Source of the DNA: a virus | Strand: one strand, 5' to 3' | DNA length: 64,000 nt | Virus record (IMG/VR): IMGVR_UViG_3300029786_000322 | In this document: positions 1,069-33,490 of the stretch, one piece after another | Numbering within the stretch: the stretch's first letter is position 1 | Layout: each line of letters starts with the position of its first letter | Position numbers and translations under genes: made by a program | Notes under the pieces: generated by a model | Databases searched by the model: none | What the model saw: the letters and a program-made list of their open reading frames with translations, nothing else | Told to the model about the DNA's origin: nothing

Positions 1069-1073
1069 GTATT

Positions 1074-3584: not shown

Positions 3585-3653
3585 TAATATTATATTAAAA
3601 TAAAAGTTTGTTACTATGTATAAAAATAAATACAATATTCTTTTAAAATTTTT

Positions 3654-3680: not shown

Positions 3681-3702
3681 TCATAACGAAGGAAGTAAAC
3701 AG

Positions 3703-3757: not shown

Positions 3758-3758
3758 A

Positions 3759-3992
3759 GTTGCACCACGCAAGGGTGCAGGGGTGAAATATTATACTGAA
3801 TCGTCGCTGCCTGCATAGATATAGTTGCATCCCTTATGGGATGTATGGGTTGAAATTCAATAGAAACAGATGCATTCGGAGGTGTTACAAGTTGCACCCC
3901 CGCAAGGGGTGCATGGGTTGAAAATAAGAAATGGTAGGAAGGAATTCAGATATGAACATTAGTTGCATCCCGCAAGGGTGCAGGGGTGAAGT
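3759..3992 (+). CRISPR. mini CRISPR array A: 4 type I-C-like repeats, 3 spacers of 33-35 nt
   Basis: Repeats at 3759-3789, 3824-3856, 3891-3925 and 3962-3992. They keep GTTGC...(G/T)GGTTGAAAT ends, but each has a different palindromic stem. Spacer 2 recurs in array D. Confidence 0.7.
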
Positions 3993-4151
3993 AAAAGGAT
4001 GTTGCCAGATATGTCAACCAAACTCGACTATTGAATAAATAACCGAGCATGATTCCTTCGGAACTGCTGAATCATGTAGTCTGACTGGTGAAGCGATGGT
4101 ATACATATTTGAACAAATTAAACAAAAATACAGAATCAGAGGGAAAATAAT

Positions 4152-4799
4152 ATGTCAAAAACAAAAGGACTATCAAAGAAGAAAAAATTACTAAAAACGC
4201 TCATACATAAATACCTTCCATTGCAGGTACTACTTACTGTCTTTTTGTATGCAGTAATTGTATTTATTAACATTCCAATTAATAAATGGCTTACTCTCAA
4301 CTGTCAGAAATGGTCAAGTGGGGAATATCATTTTTATGATGCATTTTTTATTCTTCCATTTGCTGAACTGTTAATTTTTGCCATTATGTCTGCCGTTATT
4401 TGCGCTGTTTATTATTTTGTCAGTGGAATAATCGCATATAGGAATTACTGTTACATTCCACTTACAGAAGATGAAATCAAGAAAAAAGGATTTAAAAATG
4501 CAGATGAGTATTTTGCTTATGTGTGCAACATGTGTTCTTATGGTTTTAAAAATAATAAAGACTACATTCTTGTTGGTGATGAAGACCTCCAAAAAATGTT
4601 AACTACCTGTCTGCAGGTATTTCCTGATAATGGGACAATTTTTGGAATAAACCGCCATATGGTACGAAATATCATATGGGATCCTGATTTTCTTTCCGCA
4701 CTTGCACTAGCCAGTGACCAAAGGGCGGAAATCATCAATGGACGTGTTGTATTGTCTGGCACCACAAAAGATGGTGACAGAAAAGAATATAAGATATAA
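4152..4799 (+). CDS. membrane protein with two N-terminal TM helices, array-linked paralog family (copy 1)
   Basis: RBS GAGGGAAAATAATATG. Paralog of 25498-26145 with shared blocks INIPINKWLT and AYRNYCYIPLTEDEIK. Sits directly downstream of array A. Confidence 0.7.
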   Translation: MSKTKGLSKKKKLLKTLIHKYLPLQVLLTVFLYAVIVFINIPINKWLTLNCQKWSSGEYHFYDAFFILPFAELLIFAIMSAVICAVYYFVSGIIAYRNYCYIPLTEDEIKKKGFKNADEYFAYVCNMCSYGFKNNKDYILVGDEDLQKMLTTCLQVFPDNGTIFGINRHMVRNIIWDPDFLSALALASDQRAEIINGRVVLSGTTKDGDRKEYKI

Positions 4800-8324: not shown

Positions 8325-8512
8325 AAAATGGGGGATGAAATTTGCTATTTGCATGCTTCAGAATAGGAAATTAAAAGGATAATGGAGAATAGAAATGGGA
8401 GTTTTTCAAACAAAAGTATACAAGGAATGTTATCCATTTTCGAGAGAGGTTTTGTACAATACAGAAAAACGGAAATTAATAATTCATTTACTAGAAAGGT
8501 GGTGATATAATT

Positions 8513-8782
8513 ATGCATGAAATAGAAAACAAAATTTTAGAAGAATTGCTTGTTGCACCTTTGTGCATTGTTCAAGACCGGTATGGTGGATGTTATTCTG
8601 GAGCAGAATATCTGGCATTTAATATGGAACCGTATTTAGTAACAGAATTGGACGTAGATGCAGGTGATATGAGCTGTCGCGATTTTTGGGAATACGAAGC
8701 GAAAGAGTATATTATTGGAAAAGGAAATACTCCGTTAGAAGCACTATGCGATTTACAAATTAAATTAACTTCAAAGAAGTGA
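8513..8782 (+). CDS. hypothetical protein, 89 aa
   Basis: RBS AAAGGTGGTGATATAATTATG. Confidence 0.5.
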   Translation: MHEIENKILEELLVAPLCIVQDRYGGCYSGAEYLAFNMEPYLVTELDVDAGDMSCRDFWEYEAKEYIIGKGNTPLEALCDLQIKLTSKK

Positions 8783-8976
8783 TTGTGGCAGAAAGAACGG
8801 GTATAAAATGAAAAAGATTCCATGGCTTGTCTTATCTATCAATAACAGCAGAGTACCACTTCCATATGATGCTCCGCATGGGAGTGGTAGTTCATAAAAA
8901 AGCTTCCATCAATGCTTTTGAAAAGCTATAATTATAACGTGTTATGGTCAAGCTTATAATAAGGAGATGAATAAAT

Positions 8977-9192
8977 ATGTACGGTATATCAAGGAAAATC
9001 CATGAGAGATTCATAAATAGAAAGTCAAAGAAACACGATGAAAAATATACAGTCCCATTTCCTACGGACATTCCAAACCCAAATATCGTGGTTTTCGGTA
9101 CTCATGGGAGTGGTAAATGTCGGATGCCTCTTCGCGTTAATGCTCAAATAAAAGAACTGACTACATATGATGGACTGACAGAAAGGAGATAA
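8977..9192 (+). CDS. hypothetical protein, 71 aa
   Basis: RBS ATAAGGAGATGAATAAATATG. Confidence 0.5.
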   Translation: MYGISRKIHERFINRKSKKHDEKYTVPFPTDIPNPNIVVFGTHGSGKCRMPLRVNAQIKELTTYDGLTERR

Positions 9193-9194
9193 AT

Positions 9195-9539
9195 ATGGGA
9201 ACTATTAGAAACAGATTAACGATTGTGAATGATTACAATTTTGATAGAATTACCAACACAAGACAAAATGCGGTTGAATATTTTGGAAAAATCATGCGAG
9301 ATGAATTTGACTTTCCGGATTATGATGTGAACACACAGATGATAAGTCCTATTTTGCCAAGTGTAGTAAACGGCATATACACCTTTGTTATTATGGGAGA
9401 CTGCTCAAAAGACGGATGGGAATTATCTAACGATTTTAAAAAGTACAGAGACGAGTGGATTCGGAAAAATAAGGGTCTAAATATATTGGTTGCAGACTTT
9501 GGAGAGGGAGATGCAGAAGCATATATAAAAGAGTATTAA
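9195..9539 (+). CDS. hypothetical protein, 114 aa
   Basis: RBS GAAAGGAGATAAATATG. Begins 2 nt after the upstream stop. Confidence 0.55.
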   Translation: MGTIRNRLTIVNDYNFDRITNTRQNAVEYFGKIMRDEFDFPDYDVNTQMISPILPSVVNGIYTFVIMGDCSKDGWELSNDFKKYRDEWIRKNKGLNILVADFGEGDAEAYIKEY

Positions 9540-9746
9540 TGCCCGTTTACAGTCTATAAAAGACATATTGTATCCAGAATTAAGCAAACAAGCCGTTTCT
9601 TCTCGCCTGTAGAAGGAAGGTTGAACTGGATGAAGATGTGACAGTAGACAACTGGAAGGCTCGTATAGATATTGATGAATTAGAAGCTACATATCGGGTC
9701 GCAGATTTATATACCGGTTCAATCGAAGCGTGATAGTTAATGTGTA

Positions 9747-9780
9747 AAGAAAGAGTCTTGGAATAAGGCTCTTTTTTTTA
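9747..9780 (+). terminator. rho-independent terminator
   Basis: AAGAGTCTT-GGAATA-AGGCTCTT stem followed by T8. Confidence 0.65.
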
Positions 9781-9815
9781 TTTCAGAAAAATTTTCAAGA
9801 AATTTCTGATTTACT

Positions 9816-9842
9816 TTGACGATTTTTCAAAAGGCGCAATAT
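9816..9842 (+). promoter_or_regulatory. conserved promoter-like element copy 3
   Basis: TTGACG-N11-GGCGCAATAT. Confidence 0.6.
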
Positions 9843-9885
9843 GTGTAATGAAGACGAAAATAAGACGATTTTGGAGGGAGAAAAA

Positions 9886-10215
9886 ATGAAAATTTACTTT
9901 GAGGATGGAAAACTTGTCAATATTAAGCAATTACCGATTGCGCCGGATTATGTGATTGATGCTTCTGATGGAGTAACTGCCTGCATGGATATGCTGGATC
10001 GAATTTACTCGACTAATCGAGATGCAGTTGTATATACAAATTCAATTATTGCATTCAGTAACCGGTATGCATGGAATGAAGAGAAGAAAATTTCGGATGT
10101 TTATATCAGAGATGGAGAGGGTATGGAATTTACCAATATTGCGCTTCTGACAAATAGACAACTTCGGGAGGGGCATAATCTCGCGAAGTTGTATCTTGGC
10201 GGTGAGTTCCGGTAG
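9886..10215 (+). CDS. hypothetical protein, 109 aa
   Basis: Start moved to MKIYFEDG, which has a GGAGGGAG RBS. The track start at 9841 lies inside the promoter element. Confidence 0.55.
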   Translation: MKIYFEDGKLVNIKQLPIAPDYVIDASDGVTACMDMLDRIYSTNRDAVVYTNSIIAFSNRYAWNEEKKISDVYIRDGEGMEFTNIALLTNRQLREGHNLAKLYLGGEFR

Positions 10216-14002: not shown

Positions 14003-14075
14003 CGCCGCCTGCGGGATTCGAACCCGCGGATAAAGAGTTCAAAGCTCCCTGCGTTAACCTTTTCGCCAAGGCGGA
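14003..14075 (-). tRNA. tRNA-Gln(TTG), provisional
   Basis: T-arm GCGGG-TTCGAAT-CCCGC, anticodon loop CTTTGAA, U1 as in Gln tRNAs. Acceptor pair 1-72 is mismatched. Confidence 0.5.
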
Positions 14076-14076
14076 G

Positions 14077-14144
14077 CACACCCGGAAGGACTCGAACCCT
14101 CGTTACCGGTTTTGGAGACCAGTTTCTGTCCATCAGACAGGTGC
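14077..14144 (-). tRNA. tRNA-Trp(CCA), provisional (short D-arm)
   Basis: Anticodon arm CTGGT-CTCCAAA-ACCGG identical to the canonical Trp arm. T-loop TTCGAGT. Acceptor GCACCTG/CGGGTGT has two G-U pairs. Confidence 0.5.
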
Positions 14145-14148
14145 ATAA

Positions 14149-14219
14149 CAGGCGATAATGGAATCGAACCATTGTTTTCTGAGTCAGAATCAGATGTCTT
14201 ACCATTGAACGAATCGCCC
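14149..14219 (-). tRNA. tRNA-Gln(CTG), provisional
   Basis: Anticodon arm TCTGA-TTCTGAC-TCAGA, T-arm AATGG-TTCGATT-CCATT. Confidence 0.55.
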
Positions 14220-14221
14220 AG

Positions 14222-14295
14222 TATCCCCAAAGGGACTCGAACCCTTAACCGACAGATTAGAAATCTGTTGCTCTTTCCAATTGAGCTATGGGGAT
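14222..14295 (-). tRNA. tRNA-Arg(TCT)
   Basis: Acceptor ATCCCCA/TGGGGAT, D-stem GCTC/GAGC, anticodon arm ACAGA-TTTCTAA-TCTGT, T-arm AAGGG-TTCGAGT-CCCTT. Confidence 0.7.
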
Positions 14296-14301
14296 ATATA
14301 G

Positions 14302-14391
14302 CGCAGACACCGGGGATCGAACCCGGACAGCGGGTGTGCCGCATGCCACATTAGCAGTGTGGAGGGGTACCATTTACCTTTATATGTCTGC
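14302..14391 (-). tRNA. class II tRNA-Ser(GCT), provisional
   Basis: 90 nt. Anticodon arm CCACA-CTGCTAA-TGTGG, long variable arm GCGG..CCGC, T-arm CCGGG-TTCGATC-CCCGG, acceptor GCAGACA/TGTCTGC. Confidence 0.55.
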
Positions 14392-14396
14392 ATAAG

Positions 14397-14468
14397 AGGC
14401 ATCGGAGGGGATCGAACCCTCGCCTTCCGGGTTGCAGCCGGACGCCTTCGCCGTTTGGCTACGATGCC
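14397..14468 (-). tRNA. tRNA-Cys(GCA)
   Basis: Acceptor GGCATCG/CGATGCC, anticodon arm TCCGG-CTGCAAC-CCGGA, T-arm GAGGG-TTCGATC-CCCTC. Confidence 0.7.
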
Positions 14469-14498
14469 ATATAATTCTTCCCGATAAGAGAAGATGAG

Positions 14499-14582
14499 CG
14501 CTGGGGCAGGGAGTCGAACCCTGATATCCTTTCGGAATGACGGTTTTCAGGACCGTTGCTTTACCAGTTGAGCCACCACAGC
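14499..14582 (-). tRNA. class II tRNA-Ser(TGA), provisional (C33, one acceptor mismatch)
   Basis: 84 nt. Anticodon arm ACGGT-CCTGAAA-ACCGT, variable arm TCC-GAAA-GGA, T-arm CAGGG-TTCGACT-CCCTG. Confidence 0.5.
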
Positions 14583-14827
14583 AAAAATAAAAGCATACAC
14601 CTCTCAATCGAAAGATGTATGCTTTGCAATTCCAGGTATTTCCAATATTCTCCCGGAAATTTCCCTACAATGACCACATTTCTTTCAATTTGAGACAATA
14701 TTTATTTGCACGACAACTACGCCAGATACATGACTGCGACTGACTCATACTTGCCTGTGAATATTGTCTCATTACTGCTGTAATCATTGATTTTCCCTTC
14801 CTTTCCTTGGTTTTCTTGAATATTTAG

Positions 14828-14901
14828 TGTGTCTGGTGGGACTTGAACCCGACGACCCCACGATTAAAAGTCGCGTGCTCTGCCAACTGAGCTACAGACA
14901 C
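14828..14901 (-). tRNA. tRNA-Lys(TTT)
   Basis: Acceptor GTGTCTG/CAGACAC, D-arm GCTC-AGTTGGCA-GAGC, anticodon arm CGCGA-CTTTTAA-TCGTG. The T-stem has a 1-nt bulge. Confidence 0.65.
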
Positions 14902-14906
14902 ATAAG

Positions 14907-14978
14907 CGGATCAGGAGGGAATCGAACCCTCATCTTCCGGTAGACAGCCGGATGTACTAGCCGCTATACTACAGATCC
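14907..14978 (-). tRNA. tRNA-Asp(GTC), provisional (U37, one acceptor U-U)
   Basis: Anticodon arm TCCGG-CTGTCTA-CCGGA, T-arm GAGGG-TTCGATT-CCCTC. Confidence 0.55.
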
Positions 14979-14982
14979 ATAA

Positions 14983-15055
14983 AGCTCCCGTCCGGCTTCG
15001 AACCGGAAACCTTCTGATTACAAGTCAGATGCACTACCAGTTGTGCTACAGGAGC
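14983..15055 (-). tRNA. tRNA-Thr(TGT)
   Basis: Acceptor GCTCCTG/CGGGAGC, D-stem GCAC/GTGC, anticodon arm TCTGA-CTTGTAA-TCAGA, T-arm TCCGG-TTCGAAG-CCGGA. Confidence 0.7.
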
Positions 15056-15139
15056 AGGAACACTTCCGACGGGTGCTGCCCCGCTATCTCCGCCGTGACA
15101 GGGCGGTGACTCTGTTGTTTGTCCTCGGAAGTAAATAAG

Positions 15140-15221
15140 TGCGCCGGGGAGGACTCGAACCTCCGGTGTTTCTTTGTGGCTGATTTACAGTCAGCTGCTG
15201 TCGCCTCTGAGCCACCGACGC
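15140..15221 (-). tRNA. class II tRNA-Tyr(GTA)
   Basis: Anticodon arm GCTGA-CTGTAAA-TCAGC, long variable arm, T-arm GGAGG-TTCGAGT-CCTCC, acceptor GCGTCGG/CCGGCGC. Confidence 0.7.
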
Positions 15222-15226
15222 ATAAG

Positions 15227-15298
15227 CTGGTCCGGAGGGTCTCGAACCCTCAACGCCCCGGTTAACAGCCGGGTGCTCTACCATTGAGCTACGGATCA
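15227..15298 (-). tRNA. tRNA-Asn(GTT)
   Basis: D-arm GCTC-AATGGTA-GAGC, anticodon arm CCCGG-CTGTTAA-CCGGG, T-arm GAGGG-TTCGAGA-CCCTC. One A-C acceptor mismatch. Confidence 0.65.
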
Positions 15299-15299
15299 G

Positions 15300-15371
15300 A
15301 GCATGTGACGGGTCTCGAACCCGCCCGTCCTGCTTGGAAGGCAGGTGTGCCGCCAACAACACTTCACATGC
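15300..15371 (-). tRNA. tRNA-Gly(TCC)
   Basis: Acceptor GCATGTG/CACATGC, anticodon arm CCTGC-CTTCCAA-GCAGG, T-arm GCGGG-TTCGAGA-CCCGT. Confidence 0.7.
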
Positions 15372-15436
15372 ATGCGGATAAAAGAAGTGCCTGTTTTCTC
15401 TTATCCATTCAGTTTTTTTACCGCATCGCTGCGGAG

Positions 15437-15508
15437 TGGACAGGAGTGGTAACGATCCACCCTGTAAGGATTTTCAGTCCTTCGCTAATCCATCTCAGCT
15501 ACCTGTCC
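15437..15508 (-). tRNA. tRNA-Phe(GAA) with an atypical T-loop (A54/U58 swapped)
   Basis: Perfect acceptor GGACAGG/CCTGTCC, D-arm GCTG-AGATGGAT-TAGC, anticodon arm AAGGA-CTGAAAA-TCCTT, T-arm GGTGG-ATCGTTA-CCACT. Confidence 0.55.
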
Positions 15509-17598: not shown

Positions 17599-17628
17599 GA
17601 AAATATTTCAAAACATTTCCAAAAACTT

Positions 17629-17655
17629 TTGACGATTTTTTAAATGGCGCAATAT
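17629..17655 (+). promoter_or_regulatory. conserved promoter-like element copy 6
   Basis: TTGACG-N11-GGCGCAATATGTATCATG. Confidence 0.65.
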
Positions 17656-20486: not shown

Positions 20487-20506
20487 GTAAGAAGATATAC
20501 TTTACT

Positions 20507-20724
20507 GTTGCGCCCCATTGGGTGCATGGGTTGAAATCTTTATGACCTTCTGAAAAGTGAGGGCATCTTAGTTGCACCCCCGCAAGGGATGTATGGGTTG
20601 AAATTCAATAGAAACAGATGCATTCGAAGGCGTTACAAGTTGCACCCCGCGAGGGGTGTATGGGTTGAAATTGCAGAAAGCTCAGGATTGGAAGGTTGCA
20701 TCCTATGGGATGCATGGATTGAAA
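20507..20724 (+). CRISPR. mini CRISPR array D: 4 repeats, 3 spacers
   Basis: Repeats at 20507-20537, 20571-20604, 20639-20671 and 20695-20724 with divergent stems. Spacer 2 (20605-20637) is near-identical to spacer 2 of array A. Starts 20 nt after the upstream stop. Confidence 0.7.
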
Positions 20725-20764
20725 CGAACATATTTGTTATTATTTATTATTGAGATCAGAAAGG

Positions 20765-20800
20765 TCTGCAGTCAGTTAATCTGGCTGCAGATTTTTTTTG
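20765..20800 (+). terminator. rho-independent terminator
   Basis: TCTGCAGTCAG-ttaat-CTGGCTGCAGA followed by T8. Confidence 0.7.
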
Positions 20801-20828
20801 CAATTTTTTAAAAATTTTCCAAAATCTT

Positions 20829-20855
20829 TTGACGATTTTTTAAAAGGCGCAATAT
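20829..20855 (+). promoter_or_regulatory. conserved promoter-like element copy 7
   Basis: TTGACG-N11-GGCGCAATAT. Its flank CCAAAATCTTTTGAC matches spacer 3 of the main array. Confidence 0.6.
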
Positions 20856-21090: not shown

Positions 21091-21117
21091 TTGACGATTT
21101 TTTAAAAGGCGCAATAT
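21091..21117 (+). promoter_or_regulatory. conserved promoter-like element copy 8 (cas operon promoter)
   Basis: TTGACG-N11-GGCGCAATAT, 95 nt upstream of cas5. Confidence 0.65.
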
Positions 21118-21170
21118 GTGTATTGAAGGAATAAACAGGGGCTTGCCGCTGTTGATTACCAGAGTTAAAA

Positions 21171-21210: not shown

Positions 21211-21885
21211 ATGGAAAAAGAAAAAATGGGAGTGAAACTAAAAGTCTGGGGAGATTACGCATTGTTCACCAGACCAGAACTGAAAACTGAACGGTATACA
21301 TACGATGTGATGACACCGTCGGCGGCTAGAGGAATTCTGGAATCTATCTACTGGCATCCGGGACTTCGGTGGTATGTAGACAAGATTCATGTATTAAATC
21401 CGATTGCCACTACGAGCGTGAGAAGAAATGAACTTCTCAGTAAGATACCAAAGTCAAATATGCTGCAGGCATACAACGGCGGGGATGTGAAACTGTATAA
21501 CTCGTCAAGAGACGATATTATCCAGAGGGCATCTGTTATTCTCCGGGATGTCTGCTATGTGATTGAGGCGCATTTTGAAATGACAGGGAAAGCGAGCCCA
21601 ACAGACAGCCCGGCAAAGTTTATAAGTATCTTTAACAACAGGGCAAGAAAAGGGGCATGTTATTCGATGCCGTATTTTGGTGTAAGGGAATTCCCGGCAC
21701 ACTTTGAACTCTGCGAAGGAGATGAAAAGATCCCATCCTACTATGAAGGACTTCCGGATAAAGATCTCGGGCTGATGCTTTATGATCTGGATTACTCCTG
21801 CGGTAGAGATATCCAGCCAATGTATTATCATGCGATTATGAAAAACGGCGTTATTGACGTTGGGAACAGTGAGGTGCTTCGATGA
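21211..21885 (+). CDS. cas5: Cas5 (type I-C Cas5d, crRNA-processing subunit)
   Basis: N-terminal LKVWGDYALFTRPE...SAARGILESIYWHPG is the Cas5d signature. The stop overlaps the cas8c start (ATGA). Confidence 0.9.
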   Translation: MEKEKMGVKLKVWGDYALFTRPELKTERYTYDVMTPSAARGILESIYWHPGLRWYVDKIHVLNPIATTSVRRNELLSKIPKSNMLQAYNGGDVKLYNSSRDDIIQRASVILRDVCYVIEAHFEMTGKASPTDSPAKFISIFNNRARKGACYSMPYFGVREFPAHFELCEGDEKIPSYYEGLPDKDLGLMLYDLDYSCGRDIQPMYYHAIMKNGVIDVGNSEVLR

Positions 21886-23621
21886 TCCTTCAGTCACTTG
21901 TGAAATTATATGAAACACTTGCGGATCAGGGAAAAGTGTCCCGTCCTGGCTGGTGTAATGCAAAGGTATCCTATGCGGTGGTTTTAAACCATGATGGGAC
22001 GATTAAAGATATTGTTTCCGTGAAACAGAAAGTGAAGAGAGGAAAGAAGACTGTTGAAATTCCAATAATTATGCAGGTTCCAGAGATGGTCACCCGCGCT
22101 AACAACATTGCCTCCAGCTTTCTCTGCGAAAATGCAAAGTATCTCTTTGGGATTGACGAAAAGATGAGTTTGCGTACACTGGAATGTTTTAAGGCGGCAA
22201 AGAAAAAACATCTTGATATTCTTGATGTTGTGGATTCACCTGTAGCACAGACGGTATGTAACTTTTTCCGTTCATGGGATCCGGAACAGGCGTTGGATCA
22301 ACCGGCTGTTGCAAAACTTGCAGAAGAGTTTTATAAAGGCGGAAACCTCGTTTTTGAAGTAGATGGGGAATATGTGCATGATAATGAAGAAGTCCGCAGG
22401 GCATGGATGGATTACAGCAGTGTACCATATGAAATGGTAACTGGAAGATGCCTTATTACTGGAGAGGAAGCGGAGATTGCCCGCACGCACGGGAAAATCA
22501 AAGGAGTTCCGGGAGCACAGTCATCTGGCGCGTCGCTTGTATCATTTAACGGAGCATCCCTTGAGTCTTATGAAAAAACACAGAGCTACAACGCGCCGAT
22601 TAGCACCTATGCGGCGTATGCATATGTGACCGCGCTGAATTACTTGCTTTCTACGGACGGGTATCACAGCAAGGTAGGAGATTCCATGGTGGTTTTCTGG
22701 ACAGATTCCGGGGATGTGGATGATGTGAGCAGACTGCGGAAGATGATGGGAAGCATCAATGAAAAGGATCACACCCCTACAGATACGGATGAAAAACTGT
22801 ACGTCCTCTGCCTTGCACCAAATGCCGGGCGAATTGCAGTCCGGTTCTTCTATGAGGATGCGATCGGGGTAATCTGGGAAAACCTGTCCGAACATGCCAG
22901 TCGGATGAAGATTGTAAAACCAGTATTTGAGGATCAAGAATTTATCAATATCTGGCAGATGCTCATGGAGACAGTCAACCAGAATCTTACAGATAAAACA
23001 CCTGTCCCGCATATGTCAGCAATGACGTTACAGTCAGTCATTTCGGATACACCGTATCCGCAGAGTCTGTATGCAGGTGTGTTATCTCGTATCCGCGCGG
23101 AGCACAAAGGTGTTACTTACAGAAAAGCATCGATTATTAAAGCTTTTTTAATAAAGAACTACAAATGGGAGGAAGGAAAAAATATGGAAGCATTAAATGA
23201 AGGCTGTAAGGATCGGGCATATATCCTTGGAAGACTGTTTGCGGTTATGGAAAAGGCACAGAAAGAAGCAGTTGGCAATATCAACCAGACAATTTGTGAT
23301 AAGTTTTACAATTCCGCGTGCACAACACCAAGATCGATCTTTCCAGTACTGATCAGGCTATCTAACAGTCATTTAAGTAAGTTGAAACGGACAAAACCGG
23401 GGAGAGGATATTATTTTACAGCTAAAATGCAGGATTTAATGGATAAAATTCCGGTAACAGATGATGATCCGGGATTCCCGCGGCGTTTCTCATATGAGGA
23501 TCAGGGTAAGTTTGCACTTGGTTATTATCATCAGATGCGGGCGGAATATACAAGCAGTAAGTTAAAAGATAATGATTCAGAAGGTGATCAGACAAATGCA
23601 GAGAATATGGAGGAAAACTAA
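21882..23621 (+). CDS. cas8c: Cas8c (Csd1), type I-C large subunit
   Basis: 579 aa. Its position between cas5 and cas7 and its size fit Csd1. N-terminal MILQSLVKLYETL. Confidence 0.85.
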   Translation: MILQSLVKLYETLADQGKVSRPGWCNAKVSYAVVLNHDGTIKDIVSVKQKVKRGKKTVEIPIIMQVPEMVTRANNIASSFLCENAKYLFGIDEKMSLRTLECFKAAKKKHLDILDVVDSPVAQTVCNFFRSWDPEQALDQPAVAKLAEEFYKGGNLVFEVDGEYVHDNEEVRRAWMDYSSVPYEMVTGRCLITGEEAEIARTHGKIKGVPGAQSSGASLVSFNGASLESYEKTQSYNAPISTYAAYAYVTALNYLLSTDGYHSKVGDSMVVFWTDSGDVDDVSRLRKMMGSINEKDHTPTDTDEKLYVLCLAPNAGRIAVRFFYEDAIGVIWENLSEHASRMKIVKPVFEDQEFINIWQMLMETVNQNLTDKTPVPHMSAMTLQSVISDTPYPQSLYAGVLSRIRAEHKGVTYRKASIIKAFLIKNYKWEEGKNMEALNEGCKDRAYILGRLFAVMEKAQKEAVGNINQTICDKFYNSACTTPRSIFPVLIRLSNSHLSKLKRTKPGRGYYFTAKMQDLMDKIPVTDDDPGFPRRFSYEDQGKFALGYYHQMRAEYTSSKLKDNDSEGDQTNAENMEEN

Positions 23622-23622: not shown

Positions 23623-24534
23623 ATGAGCACACCAATTAAGAACAGATATGATTTCGTAGTATTATTCGACGTAGAGAATGGAAATCCGAACGGTGATCCG
23701 GATGCCGGAAATATGCCGAGAGTTGATCCAGAGACTGGCATCGGGCTTGTGACAGATGCCTGCATAAAGCGCAAGATCCGTAATTATGTGGAAACTGTAA
23801 AAGAAGATGCAGCCGGGTTCAAGATCTATATTAAAGAGGGGGTCCCGCTGAACCGGAGTGACCTTAAGGCAGTCGAAAGTCTTGGTATTGACGTCGGTGA
23901 CGACAAAAATGCACTTGAAGATGTAAAGAAGCTGAAAAAGACAGATGAAGATGTGGATCTTAAGCTCCGTGACTATATGTGTAGTAATTTCTATGATATC
24001 CGTACATTTGGTGCTGTCTTGACTACCTTTACAAAGGCGGCATTAAACTGTGGGCAGGTACGTGGCCCGGTACAGATTGGTTTTGCAAAAAGTATTGATC
24101 CTGTTTTCAGCCAGGATATTACTGTAACCAGAGTTGCAATCACAACGGAAAAGGATGCGGAAAAGAAAAATACAGAAATGGGAAGAAAGAGTATTATTCC
24201 TTATGGACTTTACCGTGTGGAGGGATATATTTCTGCTAATCTTGCCCGTAAGACCACCGGCTTTTCTGAAGACGATCTGGAACTGCTTTGGGAAGCAATC
24301 ATTAACATGTTTGAGAATGACCATTCCGCAGCACGCGGGAAGATGGCAGTGCGTGAGCTCATCGTATTCAAGCATAACAGCGAGCTTGGCAATTGTCCAT
24401 CGTACAAACTGTTTGAAACTGTTGATGTTAAGAAGAATGATGGTGTTGAGTTTCCTCGTAAATATTCCGATTATGCAGTGACTATTCATGAGGATGCGAT
24501 TCCGGATGGCGTGACAATGACTCGCAAAATCTAA
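23623..24534 (+). CDS. cas7: Cas7 (Csd2), type I-C backbone subunit
   Basis: Start at MSTPIKNRYDF with a GGAGGA RBS. DVENGNPNGDPDAGNMPR is the Csd2 signature. Confidence 0.9.
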   Translation: MSTPIKNRYDFVVLFDVENGNPNGDPDAGNMPRVDPETGIGLVTDACIKRKIRNYVETVKEDAAGFKIYIKEGVPLNRSDLKAVESLGIDVGDDKNALEDVKKLKKTDEDVDLKLRDYMCSNFYDIRTFGAVLTTFTKAALNCGQVRGPVQIGFAKSIDPVFSQDITVTRVAITTEKDAEKKNTEMGRKSIIPYGLYRVEGYISANLARKTTGFSEDDLELLWEAIINMFENDHSAARGKMAVRELIVFKHNSELGNCPSYKLFETVDVKKNDGVEFPRKYSDYAVTIHEDAIPDGVTMTRKI

Positions 24535-24784: not shown

Positions 24785-25482
24785 GCTACGCCCCATGGAG
24801 GGGCGTATGGATTGAAAATGATTGTTATTGTTTTTTATTCATGGAGAGGAAAGCTACGCCCCATGGAGGGGCGTATGGATTGAAAAGTAAGGTTTCGTCT
24901 CGAAGCCTTTATTCTGTTTTGCTACGCCCCATGGAGGGGCGTATGGATTGAAATACCAAAATCTTTTGACATTCTTATAAATGGTAACAGCTACGTCTTA
25001 TGGGGTACGTATGGATTGAAATCATAATAATTGTAGAGATCTCAATACAAAATAAAGCTGCGTCTCATGGAATACGTATGGATTGAAATGAAAAGGCGAG
25101 TTTGCGAAAGCAGATATTGGAATGTTGCGTCTCGTGGAGTACGTATGGATTGAAATTCCAACTTTAACTACATAACTATCCTGATAAACTTGCTGCACCC
25201 CATGGAGAGTGTATGGATTGAAATTTAAAAAATCATGGATAACATCTGCGATAAGACGTTGCACCTCGCTAGGGGTGTATGGGTTGAAATTTCCATAATC
25301 GGTAGCCAATTATTATCATTAGGTGTTGCACCCCATAGAGGGTGTATGGATTGAAATTATATAAAAATGATGAATATGTAAAAAAAATAAAAGAGTTACG
25401 CTCCATGGAGTGCGTATGGCTTGAAACCTCTTATTTTTTTAAAGATATCACAATTACGCCCAAAGTGGGCTTACGTAAATTT
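24785..25482 (+). CRISPR. main CRISPR array: 10 repeats of 33 nt plus a degenerate terminal repeat, spacers of 33-37 nt
   Basis: Repeats at 24785, 24853, 24921, 24990, 25057, 25124, 25192, 25258, 25325 and 25395. A degenerate eleventh sits at 25454-25482. The first three are identical (GCTACGCCCCATGGAGGGGCGTATGGATTGAAA). Later ones keep the GYTRC 5' end and TATGGATTGAAAT 3' handle but have different, internally complementary stems. Confidence 0.85.
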
Positions 25483-25497
25483 AAAGGAGAAAAGTAC

Positions 25498-26145
25498 ATG
25501 TCAAAAACAAAAGGAATATCAAAAAAGAAAGATATATTAAAGGTATTTTGGAATGAGTGTGCAGTATTTAAGGTAGTTGTTTGTATTCTTGCGTATGTGA
25601 TACTCGGCTTTATCAATATACCAATTAACAGGTGGCTTACATTTCATGTACCTAAATGGTCAGATGGGAAACTACATGATATAACAGGATCATTTTTTGT
25701 TCTTCCTATCCTTGAAGTATTAGCGGTCACTTTAATTTATCTTATCGCTAATGGATGCTTTTATTTCATCAGCAAGATGATCGCGTACAGGAATTACTGT
25801 TACATTCCGCTTACGGAAGATGAAATTAAAGGAAAGAAATTTAAGAATGCAAATGAGTATTTTTCCTATGTCCTCAATGTCCTTTCCTATGGTTTTAAGA
25901 ATGAAAAAGAAAATCTCCAGGTTAGTGATGATGATCTTCGAGAAATGCTTATAACTTGTCTGATTGTATTCCCTGATAATGGGACAATATTTCAGATAAA
26001 ACCAGAAACTGCGTGGAATGTTTCAGACGACATCCTTTTCTCCGAAGCCGTTGAATTGAATTGCGGAAAAGCAGAAATAATTGATAAGCATGTTGTATTG
26101 TCTGGTGATAATAGAAACGGCAAAAGAGAAGAATATACAGTGTGA
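25498..26145 (+). CDS. membrane protein with two N-terminal TM helices, array-linked paralog family (copy 2)
   Basis: Paralog of 4152-4799. RBS AAAGGAGAAAAGTACATG. Starts 16 nt after the terminal degenerate repeat. Confidence 0.7.
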   Translation: MSKTKGISKKKDILKVFWNECAVFKVVVCILAYVILGFINIPINRWLTFHVPKWSDGKLHDITGSFFVLPILEVLAVTLIYLIANGCFYFISKMIAYRNYCYIPLTEDEIKGKKFKNANEYFSYVLNVLSYGFKNEKENLQVSDDDLREMLITCLIVFPDNGTIFQIKPETAWNVSDDILFSEAVELNCGKAEIIDKHVVLSGDNRNGKREEYTV

Positions 26146-26196
26146 AAGTTGATAGGTCCTCATTCGAATTTTTTATCAAATTATGGAGGAATGGCA

Positions 26197-26721
26197 ATGG
26201 AAACAATAAGAGATTACGAAGCAATGGTATACGTACTTGAACATAACCGGAAAAGTGCCGGAACAGGTGAAAATATCAGTTGGAAGAAAATATCATATGA
26301 AAAGTTAAGTAAAGAGATGAAAAGCTATACCGGACGGATTAAGCGTATGCTTGGAGAACTTATATTAAACGGACGGATAGAGATTAAAACAGAACGTCCT
26401 TTTGTTTACCGTGTTCTTATTAAATCCGTGTTTACAGAAGAAGAATTTAAGGAATACCAGGATACCCGTCTTCTTGGAAAATTCCATGACTCATTATCAA
26501 AATTAACTGATACTGTGGAAACTGCTTCCGAAACAGTACAAGCTGTTTGGCGTCCAAGTGAAGCTATGCAGAAACGCCAGACGGGTGCGGGGAATACGTT
26601 TGTGTATAGCAAAGGGAATTCTTTAAGCGTGCATGAGAGTTTTGAACGGTCAAAACAGAACCGGGAATACCGGCCGGCAGGAGAAAAGGCAGGAAAGAGA
26701 AAAGCTGTAACGATATGGTAA
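26197..26721 (+). CDS. hypothetical protein (possible DNA-binding regulator)
   Basis: GGAGGA RBS with 6-nt spacing to the second ATG. Confidence 0.45.
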   Translation: METIRDYEAMVYVLEHNRKSAGTGENISWKKISYEKLSKEMKSYTGRIKRMLGELILNGRIEIKTERPFVYRVLIKSVFTEEEFKEYQDTRLLGKFHDSLSKLTDTVETASETVQAVWRPSEAMQKRQTGAGNTFVYSKGNSLSVHESFERSKQNREYRPAGEKAGKRKAVTIW

Positions 26722-26749
26722 TTAAAAAGTAGGAAGGAAGTGAAGCGGA

Positions 26750-27214
26750 ATGTATGGTCTTATTATTAAGAAAAAATGGTTGGATTTAATCATGAGCGGG
26801 CAGAAGACTCTGGAGATCCGCGGAAGCAGGACTTCCCATGCAGGAGAAGAGATTGCGCTTCTCGAAAGCGGATCACAGAAGATCCGTGGTTTTTGTACGA
26901 TTAAAGAAGTAACGGCCTTGGATAAAGGAAAATGGGAAGCACACAGGGATCGCCATTGCGTGGATGTGCCGTGGGAAAATCTTATTAAACGATATAAGAC
27001 GCCATATGCGTGGCACTTATCTTCAATCACACCAACGGAGGAACTTACATATGAGCATCCAAAGGGTGCCGTGATCTGGGTTAACCTGGATCATGTTCCT
27101 GTATTTAAAAAAATGAACAATAAAGGAAGAAATTGTCATGAACAAATCAAGGGAACCAGCTTGCACAAATATTTCATCTCGGGAGGGTTCTATGGAAAAT
27201 ATCATAACTTATAA
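26750..27214 (+). CDS. ASCH-domain (PUA-like) protein
   Basis: KKKWLDLIMSGQKTLEIRGSRTSH matches the ASCH N-terminal beta-barrel motif. Confidence 0.55.
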   Translation: MYGLIIKKKWLDLIMSGQKTLEIRGSRTSHAGEEIALLESGSQKIRGFCTIKEVTALDKGKWEAHRDRHCVDVPWENLIKRYKTPYAWHLSSITPTEELTYEHPKGAVIWVNLDHVPVFKKMNNKGRNCHEQIKGTSLHKYFISGGFYGKYHNL

Positions 27215-27596
27215 AACGACAAACTTATTTTCAACACCAGATCTGGTTTCTCTTTTCACATCTGTTGGATGGGTTAATGAAAGTGCAGAATATCCTAATC
27301 GATTGGAAAATGCAATGTATCATTCAGATATTGTTTTTAGCGCATGGGACGGAGATAAGCTTGTTGGTTTATTAAGTACCATAAGTGATACAATGCATGT
27401 TTATATAACATATCTTCTAGTCGATCCATCTTATCAAAATAGAAAGATAGGTACTAAATTGTTAAATATGTTTGAAAAACATTATGTTAATTACAAAAAA
27501 GAACTTAAAACGGAGAAAGCATCAGATTATTATAAACGCTTTGGGTGGCATTCGGATTCTGTGGGGATGGTTAAGAATGATCTTCCCCCTTTATGA
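27192..27596 (+). CDS. GNAT-family N-acetyltransferase
   Basis: GGGAGGG RBS. Motif A QNRKIGTKLL plus YYKRFGW. Confidence 0.65.
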   Translation: MENIITYKTTNLFSTPDLVSLFTSVGWVNESAEYPNRLENAMYHSDIVFSAWDGDKLVGLLSTISDTMHVYITYLLVDPSYQNRKIGTKLLNMFEKHYVNYKKELKTEKASDYYKRFGWHSDSVGMVKNDLPPL

Positions 27597-27751
27597 TTAT
27601 TGATTCTTAACAAATGCACCAATTGCGAAGTAGAAGGAGACGCAAATGTCATATATGAGTGAGTGGATTTATTCCGAAGAAGATGCATATTTTATTATTT
27701 TAGCAGTTGCTGATATTGTAACAGGGATTTCAACACTTGGAGGTTTTAACC

Positions 27752-28177
27752 ATGAATAACGTTGTATTGATAATTATAGCTATTGCCACAACATTTGTAA
27801 TTGATAAAGTATTTGATGATGTTCTAAGTCCTGCTGCAAAGTTTATTGTGACATTGTTGACGATATTGTTTTTCGTTTTTATTTATGTTTTTGGACAGTA
27901 TGCAGCGGGTTCTGCCACTGCTGAACTACACAAATTTGTAGAACAACTTGATACGGAACAGCAGAATCAGGTAGTTGAGACAGAAAAACAAGCTAATCCA
28001 AAAAAGCAAACAAGAAAAGAGCAGGAAGAGAAATTACATAAACTTGCCGCATCTGGTAAAGCGAAGATTGTAATAGATGGTGAACCGACAAGTGATGAGT
28101 TTGATATTGATGGCATTAAATTAAAAGATTATGATATCAAATTTAAGAATGGAAAAGTCTATTTGATATCAAAATAG
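27752..28177 (+). CDS. membrane protein. C-terminal domain is paralogous to 37364-37699
   Basis: GGAGG RBS. Two TM helices. C-terminal DIDGIKLKDYDIKFKNGKVYLISK matches DIDINGINLDRYNIKIKEGKIYLIDK. Confidence 0.5.
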   Translation: MNNVVLIIIAIATTFVIDKVFDDVLSPAAKFIVTLLTILFFVFIYVFGQYAAGSATAELHKFVEQLDTEQQNQVVETEKQANPKKQTRKEQEEKLHKLAASGKAKIVIDGEPTSDEFDIDGIKLKDYDIKFKNGKVYLISK

Positions 28178-30092: not shown

Positions 30093-31160
30093 ATGGATTT
30101 ATGTATTGACTACAACTTGTTGTTTGCAGAATTAAAGAAACATGGTTTCTGCCTTGGTTTTTCAACAATTGAGAATGTTGCGCTTTCAAAGGATCAGGTG
30201 GATTACTGGCATCGTGGCAATTTCATTTGTTGTGTAAAATCAAAGGGATTAATTGCAACTTATGTATGCTTTATTACTGGTGATGAATTGAAAGATGAAT
30301 TCTCTACTTATAAGAGTGTTCATGAGTATTTGAATTTCACAGATACTATAGAAGCTCAGCGGAGACCATCAATCATTAAAGCATTTGAAAACGTTTTATT
30401 TGCCAGTTATTCTGATGCAGTTGCTAAATATAATCAGATGCTTGCTGTTTTTCCAAAATTTACACCAGCATTTAAAGAATTGTTTGCAGAAGAAATGGAT
30501 GCTCTTGCAGTATCTAATACGTCAATTCAGGTTAAACCTGATTTGTCTAAAATTTATATAAATAAAGAGCATGAATATTGTTACATCTCAGCTGTTACAC
30601 CGGATAGTGTTTGTGTTAACCGGCTCACCGCTGTATCTTTTGAAAAAGAGCTGGATTATCGTGAATTGCAGCAATACACTGCCGTTCCAGAAGTTTTTGA
30701 CGAATTACGTTCACTTCTGTTAACAGTATTACACGGTCTTTCTTCTGTTATCAAGATAAATAATCTGCCTGAAGATAACAGTGTTTCTTTGAAATATTAT
30801 AATGAAACCGATGAATTCCGTGATACAAGATATACTGCAGTTGGTCAAAATTTCGAATTGATACTTATCAATATGCTTGGTGCTTCCTGTTATTTGAGTG
30901 ATAAGTCTCGTACACATGATTCAGATAATAAGTGTCACGCATACGATATTGCTGATGTTTTTTCAGCAAATGCTAAAGCCAAACGTATTCATGATTTTCT
31001 TGTAAAACTCATGAAAGAGTTTGCGCCTATTTTAGCAGGTGACCTGGCATTGCGGAAGCAGCTTTTCGATTATTTGTATACACTTGAGGATGGTGATAAT
31101 TCCGTTAATGCGCAGCAACCAGGGTTGCCAGATAATACGGATTCTTTGCCTCATAAATAG
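30093..31160 (+). CDS. hypothetical protein, 355 aa
   Basis: AGGAGGTAACATAATG RBS. The track ORF 29853-31160 has a spurious N-terminal extension overlapping the previous gene. Confidence 0.6.
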   Translation: MDLCIDYNLLFAELKKHGFCLGFSTIENVALSKDQVDYWHRGNFICCVKSKGLIATYVCFITGDELKDEFSTYKSVHEYLNFTDTIEAQRRPSIIKAFENVLFASYSDAVAKYNQMLAVFPKFTPAFKELFAEEMDALAVSNTSIQVKPDLSKIYINKEHEYCYISAVTPDSVCVNRLTAVSFEKELDYRELQQYTAVPEVFDELRSLLLTVLHGLSSVIKINNLPEDNSVSLKYYNETDEFRDTRYTAVGQNFELILINMLGASCYLSDKSRTHDSDNKCHAYDIADVFSANAKAKRIHDFLVKLMKEFAPILAGDLALRKQLFDYLYTLEDGDNSVNAQQPGLPDNTDSLPHK

Positions 31161-31188
31161 GAAGAAAAAGGAGGAAAATAATTGCGAT

Positions 31189-31971
31189 ATGTATACTAAA
31201 ATATATGCTATTTTTACGACAGTGGTTAAATATTTTATTCTGGCGTGTGGTATATCCTTATTACTATTTTTCTTTTATGATAATGAATTAGAACCAACAA
31301 AAGACAATATTAAATGTGTAGTTAGCATAATATATATGAATTTATTAACTGCAGTAGTAATTACATATTTATTTAAAAAATTAATTGGTAGTATTAAGGA
31401 AGACGTTGTAAATGCAAAGCCGTATGGAAAAGCGCAAATAGGAAATAAAGAAAAAACGTATGAGAATATAAGAGAAATAATTACTGTTCACGAAGCAGGT
31501 CATGCAGTAATGTCTTATTTAAAAAATGCAGATACAATTATTGTGAATGCTTCTCTTTGCGAACCCAATGTAGTATCGGGATATGATAGCGTAGTAAATG
31601 CAGAAGTTGTGAAAAGCATGATACTTATTAAATACGCAGGAGCAATAGCAGAAGAATTAATATTTGGACATTATGATGCAGGTTCTTTTCTCGGATCTAA
31701 TTCAGATTTTAAAAATGCGACGGAATTAATTAAGGGCTACATTACTATGATTGATCCAGAACGGAGCAAAACACTATTAGATGACGAACTGAAAGATCAA
31801 CTTATAGATATATCAAAAACTTTTTATCAAGAATGCAAAGAATTACTTAGCTGTAATATAAAATTAGTTGAACATTTATCTAATGTATTGACATACAAAG
31901 AAAGATTAACCACAGAAGAAGTACTTGAGATAATAAATGCTTTCAAGGAGAGCAAAGAAATAAATACTTAA
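31189..31971 (+). CDS. membrane-anchored M41 (FtsH-like) zinc metalloprotease domain protein with no AAA module
   Basis: Two N-terminal TM helices. TVHEAGHAVMSY is the FtsH HEAGH zinc-binding motif. Downstream helical region resembles the FtsH peptidase domain. Confidence 0.65.
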   Translation: MYTKIYAIFTTVVKYFILACGISLLLFFFYDNELEPTKDNIKCVVSIIYMNLLTAVVITYLFKKLIGSIKEDVVNAKPYGKAQIGNKEKTYENIREIITVHEAGHAVMSYLKNADTIIVNASLCEPNVVSGYDSVVNAEVVKSMILIKYAGAIAEELIFGHYDAGSFLGSNSDFKNATELIKGYITMIDPERSKTLLDDELKDQLIDISKTFYQECKELLSCNIKLVEHLSNVLTYKERLTTEEVLEIINAFKESKEINT

Positions 31972-32332: not shown

Positions 32333-32524
32333 TTTCTTGCGGAGCAGAGCAGAGGAAGGCTCACCGGGCTCATGACCTGGGTGTCGGATGTTCGATTCCT
32401 TTCTCCGCAATTAATTTTAAAAAAGGGAGGTTATAACATGTTCTAACTGATTAGAAAACATAAACAAGCATTCGTTCAAAAGAAAGATTCGTATGTGAAA
32501 AAAGGATGGGAGGAAAAGAAAATC

Positions 32525-33490
32525 ATGGGAATGGATGTAAACATGCTTGCCTGCGTGCGGGCACTTGCAGAAAACAGAATACAGGATGCGAAGAAATACG
32601 CGGTCTGCTGTTGTGCCAATGACAATACGAAGAAAAATGAGAGCCAAGTCAGAAGATGTAAAAATCTTCTGCTCAACGGTCCAAATATGATCGAGCTGCC
32701 AGCAAATCTTAACGGGCTCCTACGTATGGAAGATGTGTCCAGCTTTCATGCCGAGCGGTACTACCTTGGGAAAACCCAGTGGGATCTTTTTGAAAAGATT
32801 AAACGTGGTGTGGCGGTCACGCTTAAATTAATGGAGTATGGGATTCCCTACAAAAACAGCACCCTCATATACGGCGTGCCCGGCACTGGGAAAACGGAGT
32901 TTGCCAGATATGTGGCGTATTCCCTGGGTATTCCTTATGCATATATTAATTTTTCCTTCCTGATCGACTCATTCATGGGGAATACATCGAAGAATATCCA
33001 GCGTGTGTTTGATTTCTGCAAAGGGCAGAAATGTGTCCTGATGCTTGATGAGATCGACTGTATCGGATTAAAGCGCGGCATAGGAGGAAATGGGGGACCA
33101 GATGGGGAAATATCAAGAACGACCATTTCTCTTATGCAGGCATTGGACGATCTGACAGACGGGCAGATCATCATTGCTGCCACGAACCGGTACGACCTGC
33201 TTGATCCCGCTTTGTCCAGACGGTTCCAGAACCATGTGGAATTCCGTCCATTCAATTTTGAAGAAAACAGGGAGATGATGGAAAAATTCCTGGCGGCAGT
33301 GGACGAGTCTTTGCTGAGTGTTATGGAAATTGTAACGTATGCAAGAGAAAACCATACGCAGGCAGAGGTAACCGGGCATCTCATTGAAGTACTGACGCGC
33401 AAGGTATCGCAGGAAGTGGATGTGGAAGCGGCGCTGGAAGCACTAAAAAGTGGGAATGGAAGAACAGATGACTGGGAAAAGCTTTTCTAA
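32525..33490 (+). CDS. AAA+ ATPase of the FtsH/Cdc48 clade
   Basis: Walker A GVPGTGKTEF, Walker B VLMLDEID, sensor/second region IIIAATNRYDLLDPALSRRF. GGGAGG RBS. Confidence 0.75.
   Translation: MGMDVNMLACVRALAENRIQDAKKYAVCCCANDNTKKNESQVRRCKNLLLNGPNMIELPANLNGLLRMEDVSSFHAERYYLGKTQWDLFEKIKRGVAVTLKLMEYGIPYKNSTLIYGVPGTGKTEFARYVAYSLGIPYAYINFSFLIDSFMGNTSKNIQRVFDFCKGQKCVLMLDEIDCIGLKRGIGGNGGPDGEISRTTISLMQALDDLTDGQIIIAATNRYDLLDPALSRRFQNHVEFRPFNFEENREMMEKFLAAVDESLLSVMEIVTYARENHTQAEVTGHLIEVLTRKVSQEVDVEAALEALKSGNGRTDDWEKLF

Follow-up and report, generated by a model that had tools for sequence, protein, structure and literature searches.

Paralogous membrane protein genes at the borders of a type I-C Cascade island in a gut mobile element

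Two-helix membrane proteins beside CRISPR arrays

We analyzed a 64,000-nucleotide (nt) stretch of DNA (IMG/VR record IMGVR_UViG_3300029786_000322; the whole stretch is called the window below) in which genes for a small transmembrane (TM) protein follow CRISPR arrays. The gene under study, B, its paralog A, and a third copy, C, are listed with the other features of the locus in Table 1. An initial annotation had proposed that this protein, cotranscribed with CRISPR RNAs (crRNAs) next to a Cascade that lacks Cas3, could be an accessory effector or regulator or, equally, an unrelated superinfection-exclusion protein. Here, we describe the protein family, a Cascade-carrying island that A and B bracket, and the gene order around 107 related loci, which are cited by number (L001, L002, and so on).

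A and B are full-length paralogs, as annotated, although they share 51% identity from end to end (E = 8e-76) rather than the approximately 45% first reported. The third copy is indeed truncated: C matches the first 96 residues of B at 48% identity, in an alignment of 103 residues (E = 5e-25), and consists of the two-helix N-terminal half only. Two membrane-spanning segments had also been predicted, and these are borne out by hydropathy, with hydrophobic segments at residues ~16–45 and ~60–96, and by an AlphaFold2 model, in which two long helices are followed by a confident C-terminal domain. Six to eight of the first 22 residues are Lys or Arg, which should place the N-terminus and the C-terminal domain on the cytoplasmic side. 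The predicted architecture comprises a cytoplasmic N-terminus rich in lysine, two helices forming a membrane hairpin whose outer loop is short, and a conserved cytoplasmic α/β domain of ~120 amino acids (aa). Conservation across the family is strongest directly after helix 2 (A-Y-R-N-Y-C-Y-I-P-L-T-E-D-E-I ... Y-G-F-K ... C-L-x-V-F-P-D-N-G-T-I-F), with N99, Y100, C101, P104, E109, C154, and G162 invariant and the polar helix residues N40, P70, and E73 nearly so.

The family is rare. It forms 91 clusters at 90% identity, none of them named, from human-gut and bovine metagenomes, and a profile search of 1.84 billion representatives recovered only 110 members. Pfam, PHROGs, PADLOC, and NCBIfam gave nothing significant for the TM protein; Pfam, NCBIfam, and PADLOC were checked on 56 members, in none of which they detected a CARF, SAVED, or HEPN-type sensor or effector domain. 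The best matches, AntA (E = 0.049) and FtsX (E = 0.16), were dismissed as noise. Remote homology and structure comparison, which the initial annotation had recommended, led to the AlphaFold2 model and to no known relative: a sequence profile search of the PDB with the family gave no match below E = 0.1, and a PDB fold search with the model gave no match. IMG/VR yielded no relatives when scanned with B, with the family alignment, with the helicase, or with Cas8c, and neither INPHARED nor PLSDB contained a match to B. The GTDB species representatives yielded a single distant match, in a Lachnospiraceae metagenome-assembled genome. The family is new and uncharacterized, but of an already known kind.

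Exchange of the island between A and B

Two related loci lack precisely the DNA between A and B. L105 and L106 consist of window positions 1–4643 joined to positions 25777–27861, at 98.7–98.8% identity (blastn). Their alignments to A and B overlap across a 216-nt core shared by both genes, and their TM protein is an A/B chimera. The position of these junctions within the shared core identifies A and B as direct repeats that bracket a 21.1-kb island containing p72, C, a Dcm methylase, a flotillin-like gene, 13 tRNAs, array arr2, cas5c-8c-7c, and array arr3 (Rfam, Pfam/NCBIfam). The crossover points of the chimeras P0004 and P0005 differ, which indicates that the recombination event is recurrent. 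Overall, the sequences demonstrate exchange by recombination between A and B. The 13 tRNA genes of the island occupy positions 14003–15508 on the minus strand, and one more lies downstream on the plus strand (32338–32410).

Rearrangements at the TM gene are found in further loci. L022 and L027 carry tandem duplicates of the gene with gene fragments between them, and in L016 a deletion joins arr3 to codon 63 of B while Cascade is retained. The 45 nt upstream of C are identical to the junction between p72 and the TM gene in a clade of 65% identity, and C is a relic of this p72-then-TM arrangement. With recombination occurring at the TM gene, the junctions between arrays and genes are edges of exchanged segments.

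Sequence change is concentrated in one half of the protein. The window is 99–100% identical to L089 and L048 for kilobases on either side of A; the identity is 80% at positions 4000–4100 and 73–89% at positions 4200–4500, the membrane-hairpin half of A. Among close A alleles, the ratio of nonsynonymous to synonymous substitution rates (dN/dS) is 0.88–1.36 for residues 1–98 and 0.08–0.24 for residues 99–215. The hairpin appears to undergo swapping or diversification and the cytoplasmic domain to stay constant, a pattern expected of a specificity determinant.

Table 1. Positions of the membrane protein genes and associated features in the window
Feature	Position	Strand	Remarks
TM paralog A, 215 aa	4152–4799	+	Predicted Lys-rich N-terminus, two TM helices, cytoplasmic α/β domain
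TM paralog B, 215 aa from ATG	25498–26145	+	Program-called open reading frame runs from GTG at 25342, inside arr3
C, truncated copy, 110 aa	5074–5406	+	Both TM helices, without C-terminal domain
Shared conserved core of A (juxtamembrane AYRNYCYIPLTEDEI... region), crossover zone	4428–4643	+	Corresponds to B 25777–25992
Accessory island bracketed by A and B	4644–25776		Missing from L105/L106 (blastn against the window)
SF2 helicase (RadD/type I R-subunit-like)	1281–3584	+	Conserved 5' neighbor of arr1 and A; NCBIfam RadD 1.5e-42; PADLOC mREase_IV/REase_I
Promoter-like box upstream of arr1	3654–3690	+	TTGACG-N17-AATAT...
arr1, mini-array	3755–3993	+	Four partly degenerate type I-C-like repeats, three spacers
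p72, 72 aa	4816–5034	+	Directly upstream of TM gene in other lineages
arr2, mini-array	20505–20725	+	Four repeats; paralogous to arr1
Strong terminator-like hairpin after arr2	20758–20798	+	18-bp stem
Promoter-like box upstream of cas5c	21091–21127	+	Second copy at 20829
cas5c	21211–21885	+	TIGR01876 8.6e-52; PADLOC Cas5c 2.5e-65
cas8c	21882–23621	+	TIGR01863 2.1e-119
cas7c	23623–24534	+	TIGR02589 1.6e-102
arr3	24786–25427	+	10 heterogeneous I-C repeats, nine spacers
Degenerate terminal pseudo-repeat	25452–25486	+	Abuts ribosome-binding site of B; alignment score 4
p175, 175 aa	26194–26721	+	Most widely conserved TM neighbor; weak winged-helix hints
ASCH-domain protein	26750–27214	+	Third of TM-p175-ASCH trio; Pfam ASCH, synteny

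Gene neighborhoods, arrays, and transcription signals

We examined the 107 related loci by scanning for the repeat motif and, de novo, for spaced repeats. The array-then-gene order, whose conservation had been suggested as a check in the initial annotation, is kept in A-type loci and in one Cascade-bearing lineage with two sublineages; these are the only loci with arrays upstream of the TM gene, and in at least 11 other clades there are no CRISPR-like repeats within 1.2 kb or more. In A-type loci (L002–5, L041–53, L089–92, and L103–106) the order is always superfamily 2 (SF2) helicase, arr1, A, and in B-type loci it is always cas5-8-7, array, B. Elsewhere, the TM gene is preceded by a Dam methylase and a truncated Dcm remnant (L097, L031), by p72 (L099, L027, L029), by a RuvB-like ATPase (L094), TnpB (L006), or an HNH protein (L101), or by unrelated coding sequence (L059, L060, L040). 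One homolog carries an extra 150-aa tail and is located on a bacterial chromosome, where its neighbors are purH-like, IMP-cyclohydrolase, and dnaJ genes (L064). The ~40 nt 5' of the start codon are clade-specific and remain unchanged whatever sits further upstream. The TnpB/Cas12f-like gene of L006 (positions 8352–9998 of that locus) ends 3 nt before the open reading frame called for the TM homolog and represents one more RNA-guided system that has inserted into this hot spot.

The association kept over the greatest divergence lies downstream of the gene and consists of TM, sometimes p72, then p175 and ASCH. The TM-p175-ASCH order is maintained in the bovine clade, in which TM and p175 are both ~38% identical to those of the window (tblastn). 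p175 is an orphan family with weak FeoC/TrmB-type matches only, and it is missing from L107 and from a clade of 30% identity. In many relatives the trio is followed, as in the window, by a Peptidase_M41-like protein (31039–31971) and an AAA ATPase (32495–33490) that matches PADLOC IetA (1e-51); the two may constitute a defense or anti-defense pair.

L107 illustrates how densely arrays can be packed, with five in 16.5 kb. Three of the four that do not precede the TM gene lie 94–163 nt before unrelated plus-strand genes, and the fourth precedes a terminator. This array density lowers the weight of the adjacency between array and TM gene. The five I-C arrays and a solitary repeat occupy positions 863–15629 of L107, and the TM gene sits between two arrays, the second of which has a leader-like sequence of its own.

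In the window, A and B each directly follow an array, as annotated, and a terminator scan detected none between arr1 and A or between arr3 and B, in contrast to the strong terminator-like hairpin behind arr2. A starts ~160 nt after the last arr1 repeat, and B starts 70 nt past the last intact arr3 repeat and 11 nt past the pseudo-repeat, which scores 4 against the repeat consensus (background −8.7 ± 3.6, or ~3.5 standard deviations above). In L107, only 26 nt separate the last array repeat from the ATG of the TM gene. A highly conserved, element-specific promoter-like box (TTGACGATTTTTTAAAAGGCGCAATAT...) recurs no fewer than 11 times in the window, exclusively on the plus strand, with 0 expected by chance. 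Copies of this box (TTGACGATTTTTTAAAAGGCGCAATATGTGTA) are found at 1040, 3654, 9816, 12603, 16729, 17629, 20829, 21091, 44098, 48510, and 57412 (+), and none lies between arr1 and A or arr3 and B. Because neither terminator nor promoter box intervenes, cotranscription of A and B with their arrays, as first proposed, is likely, a conclusion drawn from sequence features. Array-less TM homologs likewise sit within long plus-strand operons. We found no structured RNA between array and gene, as predicted folds of positions 3990–4160 (z = −0.8) and 25390–25510 (z = +0.65) were no better than those of shuffled sequences, and an Rfam scan returned tRNAs only.

The promoter-like box may be read by an element-encoded sigma factor. 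Behind the copies at 1040, 12603, and 17629 lies a conserved stretch of ~40 nt (GTAAAGGTCATAAACCGAGCTGCCAGGGTTACCGGCTGGCA) that could be a leader or a small RNA. The gap between arr1 and A contains, at 3990–4110, an inverted repeat (CATGATTCCTTCGGAACTGCTGAATCATG) in which L089 and L043 differ by seemingly compensatory changes (GGTTCTTCGGAACC).

No spacer seed match flanked by the protospacer-adjacent motif (PAM) TTC was found near A, B, the boxes at 3654 and 21091, or the upstream regions. Three spacers (arr3 spacers 3 and 7 and arr2 spacer 1) were considered as targeting the promoter box; matches of 10–13 nt were equally frequent with shuffled spacers, and only arr3 spacer 3 remains notable. 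This spacer (24955–24989) matches the element's own box over 15 contiguous nt, including the −35 TTGAC, and at 25 of 35 positions overall (copies at 20818–20852, 17618–17652, and 57401–57435). Other spacers reach at most 22 of 35 in the window, and with shuffled spacers contiguous matches to a box extend to 13 nt at most. At the self copies, the TTC PAM is replaced by TTT, ATT, or GTT, and position 1 is mismatched. The target of this spacer may be the homologous promoter in a competing relative of the element, or the spacer may act as a weak autoregulatory site for a binding-only Cascade.

The Cas3-less Cascade was correctly placed next to B, but A lies 17 kb from it and only B adjoins it. The cas5c, cas8c, and cas7c assignments have NCBIfam and PADLOC E-values of 1e-52 to 1e-144. 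We found no cas3, cas1, cas2, or cas4 beside Cascade, in the larger open reading frames of the window (small ones were partly scanned), or in the Pfam tables of L001 and L103. The nearest Cas8c sequences outside the Cascade-bearing lineage are chromosomal Roseburia proteins that are ~50% identical. The window helicase matches only phage and plasmid DEAD-box helicases of ~35–39% identity. It is at most a candidate Cas3 substitute: the similarity is only generic to SF2, an HD domain was not detected, and the gene is kept with arr1 in Cascade-less elements.

The arrays themselves have several unusual features. arr1 and arr2 have one spacer in common, with two mismatches, which adds to the evidence of exchange at the TM gene. 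The arr3 repeats are heterogeneous, and their hairpin is kept by compensatory changes (GCCCC/GGGGC, GTCTC/GRTAC, CACCCC/GRGTG, and CGCTCC/GAGTGCG). The distal arr3 repeats are similar to those of arr1 and arr2, perhaps suggesting that arr3 is a fusion of arrays. L009–12 have one to three additional leader-proximal arr3 spacers despite the absence of cas1 and cas2. In ~20 loci (L002–5, L041–53, L089–92) the three spacers of arr1 are all 100% identical, with neighboring TM proteins that are only 80–87% identical, and arr1 is kept in elements without Cascade (L002–4, L105). The fixation of these spacers in a Cascade-less element suggests that arr1 is there a mini-array that uses a host (Roseburia-type I-C) Cascade, as a regulatory or anti-defense crRNA-like RNA.

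PHROG and Pfam scans of 20 large open reading frames in the window identified neither structural phage genes nor complete conjugation genes. A large phage is suggested by the 13-tRNA cluster, a conjugative element by TraG/VirB4-like, PcfJ, and LPD1 genes in the neighborhoods. The metagenome collection lists an uncharacterized 164-aa protein encoded at 396–890 in 1838 blocks, contigs of 0.2–1 Mb among them, indicating that the element, or part of it, is extremely prevalent in human gut samples. A gene for a TnpB-family RNA-guided nuclease is located at 57486–59015.

Interpretation and comparison with known systems

We favor, at a probability of roughly 60%, a reading in which the TM protein is a membrane protein of the mobile element with no part in CRISPR function, a hot spot of recombination is marked by its gene, the two copies bracket the Cascade island, and their proximity to arrays results from the architecture of the locus. 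The three copies, with C as a relic, would be paralogous alleles in a group of large gut mobile elements, probably of Lachnospiraceae/Roseburia. The gene would lie at the edge of the hot spot, with variable cargo upstream, and would itself supply the homology for exchange; recombination within the A/B core would remove or install the island with its nuclease-less type I-C Cascade and two arrays. The array-then-gene order would be a by-product of this architecture, in which A borders on the helicase-arr1 block and B on arr3, the final feature of the island. A and B would ride on the array transcripts incidentally, and the protein would do its work independently of CRISPR. We infer that it may serve the element as a specificity determinant anchored in the membrane, with a role in exclusion or self-recognition; specificity would reside in the fast-evolving hairpin, and the co-conserved p175 and ASCH proteins would be the partners of the constrained cytoplasmic domain. 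Of the two options offered in the initial annotation, an unrelated exclusion-type protein fits the data better than an accessory of Cascade.

Several observations weigh against this reading. A dN/dS near 1 in the hairpin could also arise from relaxed constraint on an anchor together with gene conversion between paralogs, rather than from diversifying selection. No homology of the TM protein to exclusion proteins was found in PHROG, Pfam, PDB sequence, or PDB fold searches, and the signals for the type of element conflict, the tRNA cluster pointing one way and the TraG/VirB4-like, PcfJ, and LPD1 genes the other. In L107, the cas7-array-B order is kept despite replacement of the downstream p175 and ASCH genes, with 91% DNA identity in Cascade and 56% protein identity in B. 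Both known B-type hairpin lineages are array-adjacent, and arrays directly upstream in 2 of roughly 12 clades are more than would be expected purely at random. Coupling to CRISPR, where the family as a whole lacks it, may thus persist as a lineage-specific exception in these two sublineages.

The best of the alternatives, although in our estimate an unlikely one, is that the protein simply anchors the TM-p175-ASCH module in the membrane or regulates it, for instance by tethering a winged-helix-like p175 or a nucleic-acid-binding ASCH protein, with no role in exclusion or specificity. The variable hairpin would then reflect weak constraint and gene conversion among paralogs. This would accord with the synteny of the trio, which is the widest conserved association, with strong purifying selection on the C-terminal domain, and with the weak FeoC/TrmB-type matches of p175. 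However, an island of divergence within otherwise identical flanks and repeated allele swaps suggest selection for change rather than drift, p175 is missing in L107 and the 30% clade, and p175 has no assignable function.

We consider it quite improbable that B is coupled to CRISPR, either as a Cascade-linked membrane effector or as a CreT-like guard toxin, with its expression tied to crRNA biogenesis. Processing by Cas5c or coating by Cas7 of the trailing transcript, or repression by Cascade of the promoter at 21091, could gate B synthesis, and loss or inhibition of Cascade could release it. The ribosome-binding site and start codon of B do lie, in both sublineages, no more than one spacer length from the terminal (pseudo-)repeat, the gap from repeat to ATG (11–70 nt in the window, 26 nt in L107) contains neither terminator nor promoter box, and two sublineages that differ in their downstream genes share the cas7-leader-array-B order. 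One of the arr3 spacers is similar to the promoter box of the element itself, a nuclease-less Cascade could plausibly regulate by binding alone (PMC7162821), and crRNA-like RNAs and CreTA modules form the background (bioRxiv 10.1101/2024.10.29.618823). Nevertheless, A lies far from Cascade and A-type genes occur in Cascade-less elements, no TTC-flanked spacer seed lies near either gene or its upstream region, no sensor or effector domain was detected, and the two array-adjacent B lineages belong to one Cascade lineage and hence to one evolutionary event. The claim of an accessory effector or regulator is consequently not supported for the family, and what the initial annotation had named as its refutation is largely observed: homologs are common without CRISPR nearby, in most clades of the family, and the adjacency is not conserved. 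L016 has lost the N-terminus of B and keeps Cascade, and L105 and L106 have lost Cascade and keep the gene.

The narrower proposal, that within the Cascade lineage B is wired to the nuclease-less type I-C system through control of its translation by Cas5c cleavage or Cas7 coating of the trailing pre-crRNA and acts as a guard toxin or membrane effector, is, if anything, less probable again. If the protein were an accessory of Cascade, it would represent the first case of a membrane effector linked to Cascade of type I; a wired B would give a type I system its first membrane partner and would be a CreT-like safeguard at the RNA level. Least probable of all is a pore-forming lysis or abortive-infection protein of a large phage (class II holin-like or a small membrane toxin), for which the topology with both termini inside and a charged N-terminus, the conserved polar helix residues N40, P70, and E73, and the tRNA cluster could be cited, but which is at odds with a 215-aa length and a folded 120-aa cytoplasmic domain (class II holins have 65–95 aa), with the lack of an endolysin or spanin in any neighborhood examined, with the tolerance of several copies, truncated ones included, in one element, and with the lack of a PHROG match.

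These results provide a clear natural example of a CRISPR-Cas island being gained and lost on a very prevalent gut mobile element through homologous recombination between diverged gene copies. They also call for caution about guilt by association, as in array-dense elements adjacency to an array without a terminator is weak evidence of a functional link. The new and rare membrane family, with its fast-evolving hairpin, is a reasonable candidate for exclusion or compatibility.

Membrane proteins are known as ancillary effectors of CRISPR systems, namely Csx28 and Csx27 in type VI-B and Cam1 and Csx23 in type III. They co-occur with cas loci in many lineages, and those of type III carry a CARF or SAVED sensing domain. 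B resembles them as a small protein with TM helices that is encoded beside a CRISPR effector module, probably on the array transcript. It differs from Csx28, Cam1, and Csx23 in that most members of its family lie far from CRISPR, no sensing domain was found, and the system is of type I-C, for which we know of no membrane effector.

CreTA modules offer a second comparison. Characterized CreT toxins are small RNAs, not 215-aa membrane proteins. The likeness lies in a gene beside Cascade genes and degenerate-repeat mini-arrays, with a Cascade that would only bind DNA: B follows cas7c and arr3, and A follows the mini-array arr1. However, no spacer-like sequence with a PAM-flanked seed for the promoter or 5' region of A or B was found, the TM gene family is widespread without Cascade, and natural Cascade-less variants keep an intact A/B chimera, which would argue against obligate toxicity. 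In CreTA, a Cascade-repressed toxin is guarded by the crRNA-like mini-array CreA, and such modules are known in type I-B and I-F systems (bioRxiv 10.1101/2024.10.29.618823). The mini-arrays of the window likewise recall the crRNA-like regulatory RNAs and Cracr arrays (same source).

The Cascade itself resembles the type I-C variants that Al-Shayeb et al. (2020) reported on huge phages; in the CRISPR passages of that article, these are nuclease-less, without Cas1/2, and equipped with a helicase in place of Cas3 (PMC7162821). Shared with those variants, as described there, are cas5-cas8-cas7 without cas1, cas2, and cas3, compact arrays, an SF2 helicase nearby, and residence on a large mobile element of a microbiome (PMC7162821). 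The same passages do not mention a conserved membrane protein. The window differs in that its helicase lies 17 kb from Cascade and persists in elements without it.

Mobile elements also encode membrane proteins for exclusion, such as T4 Imm, P22 SieA, F TraS, and SXT/R391 Eex. The TM protein has no sequence or fold similarity to these, no traG-type partner was identified next to its gene, and the likeness is one of kind, not of homology. Like them, it is a small inner-membrane protein of a mobile element, encoded by mosaic and diverse alleles in several copies, in which a variable part is combined with a conserved cytoplasmic part.

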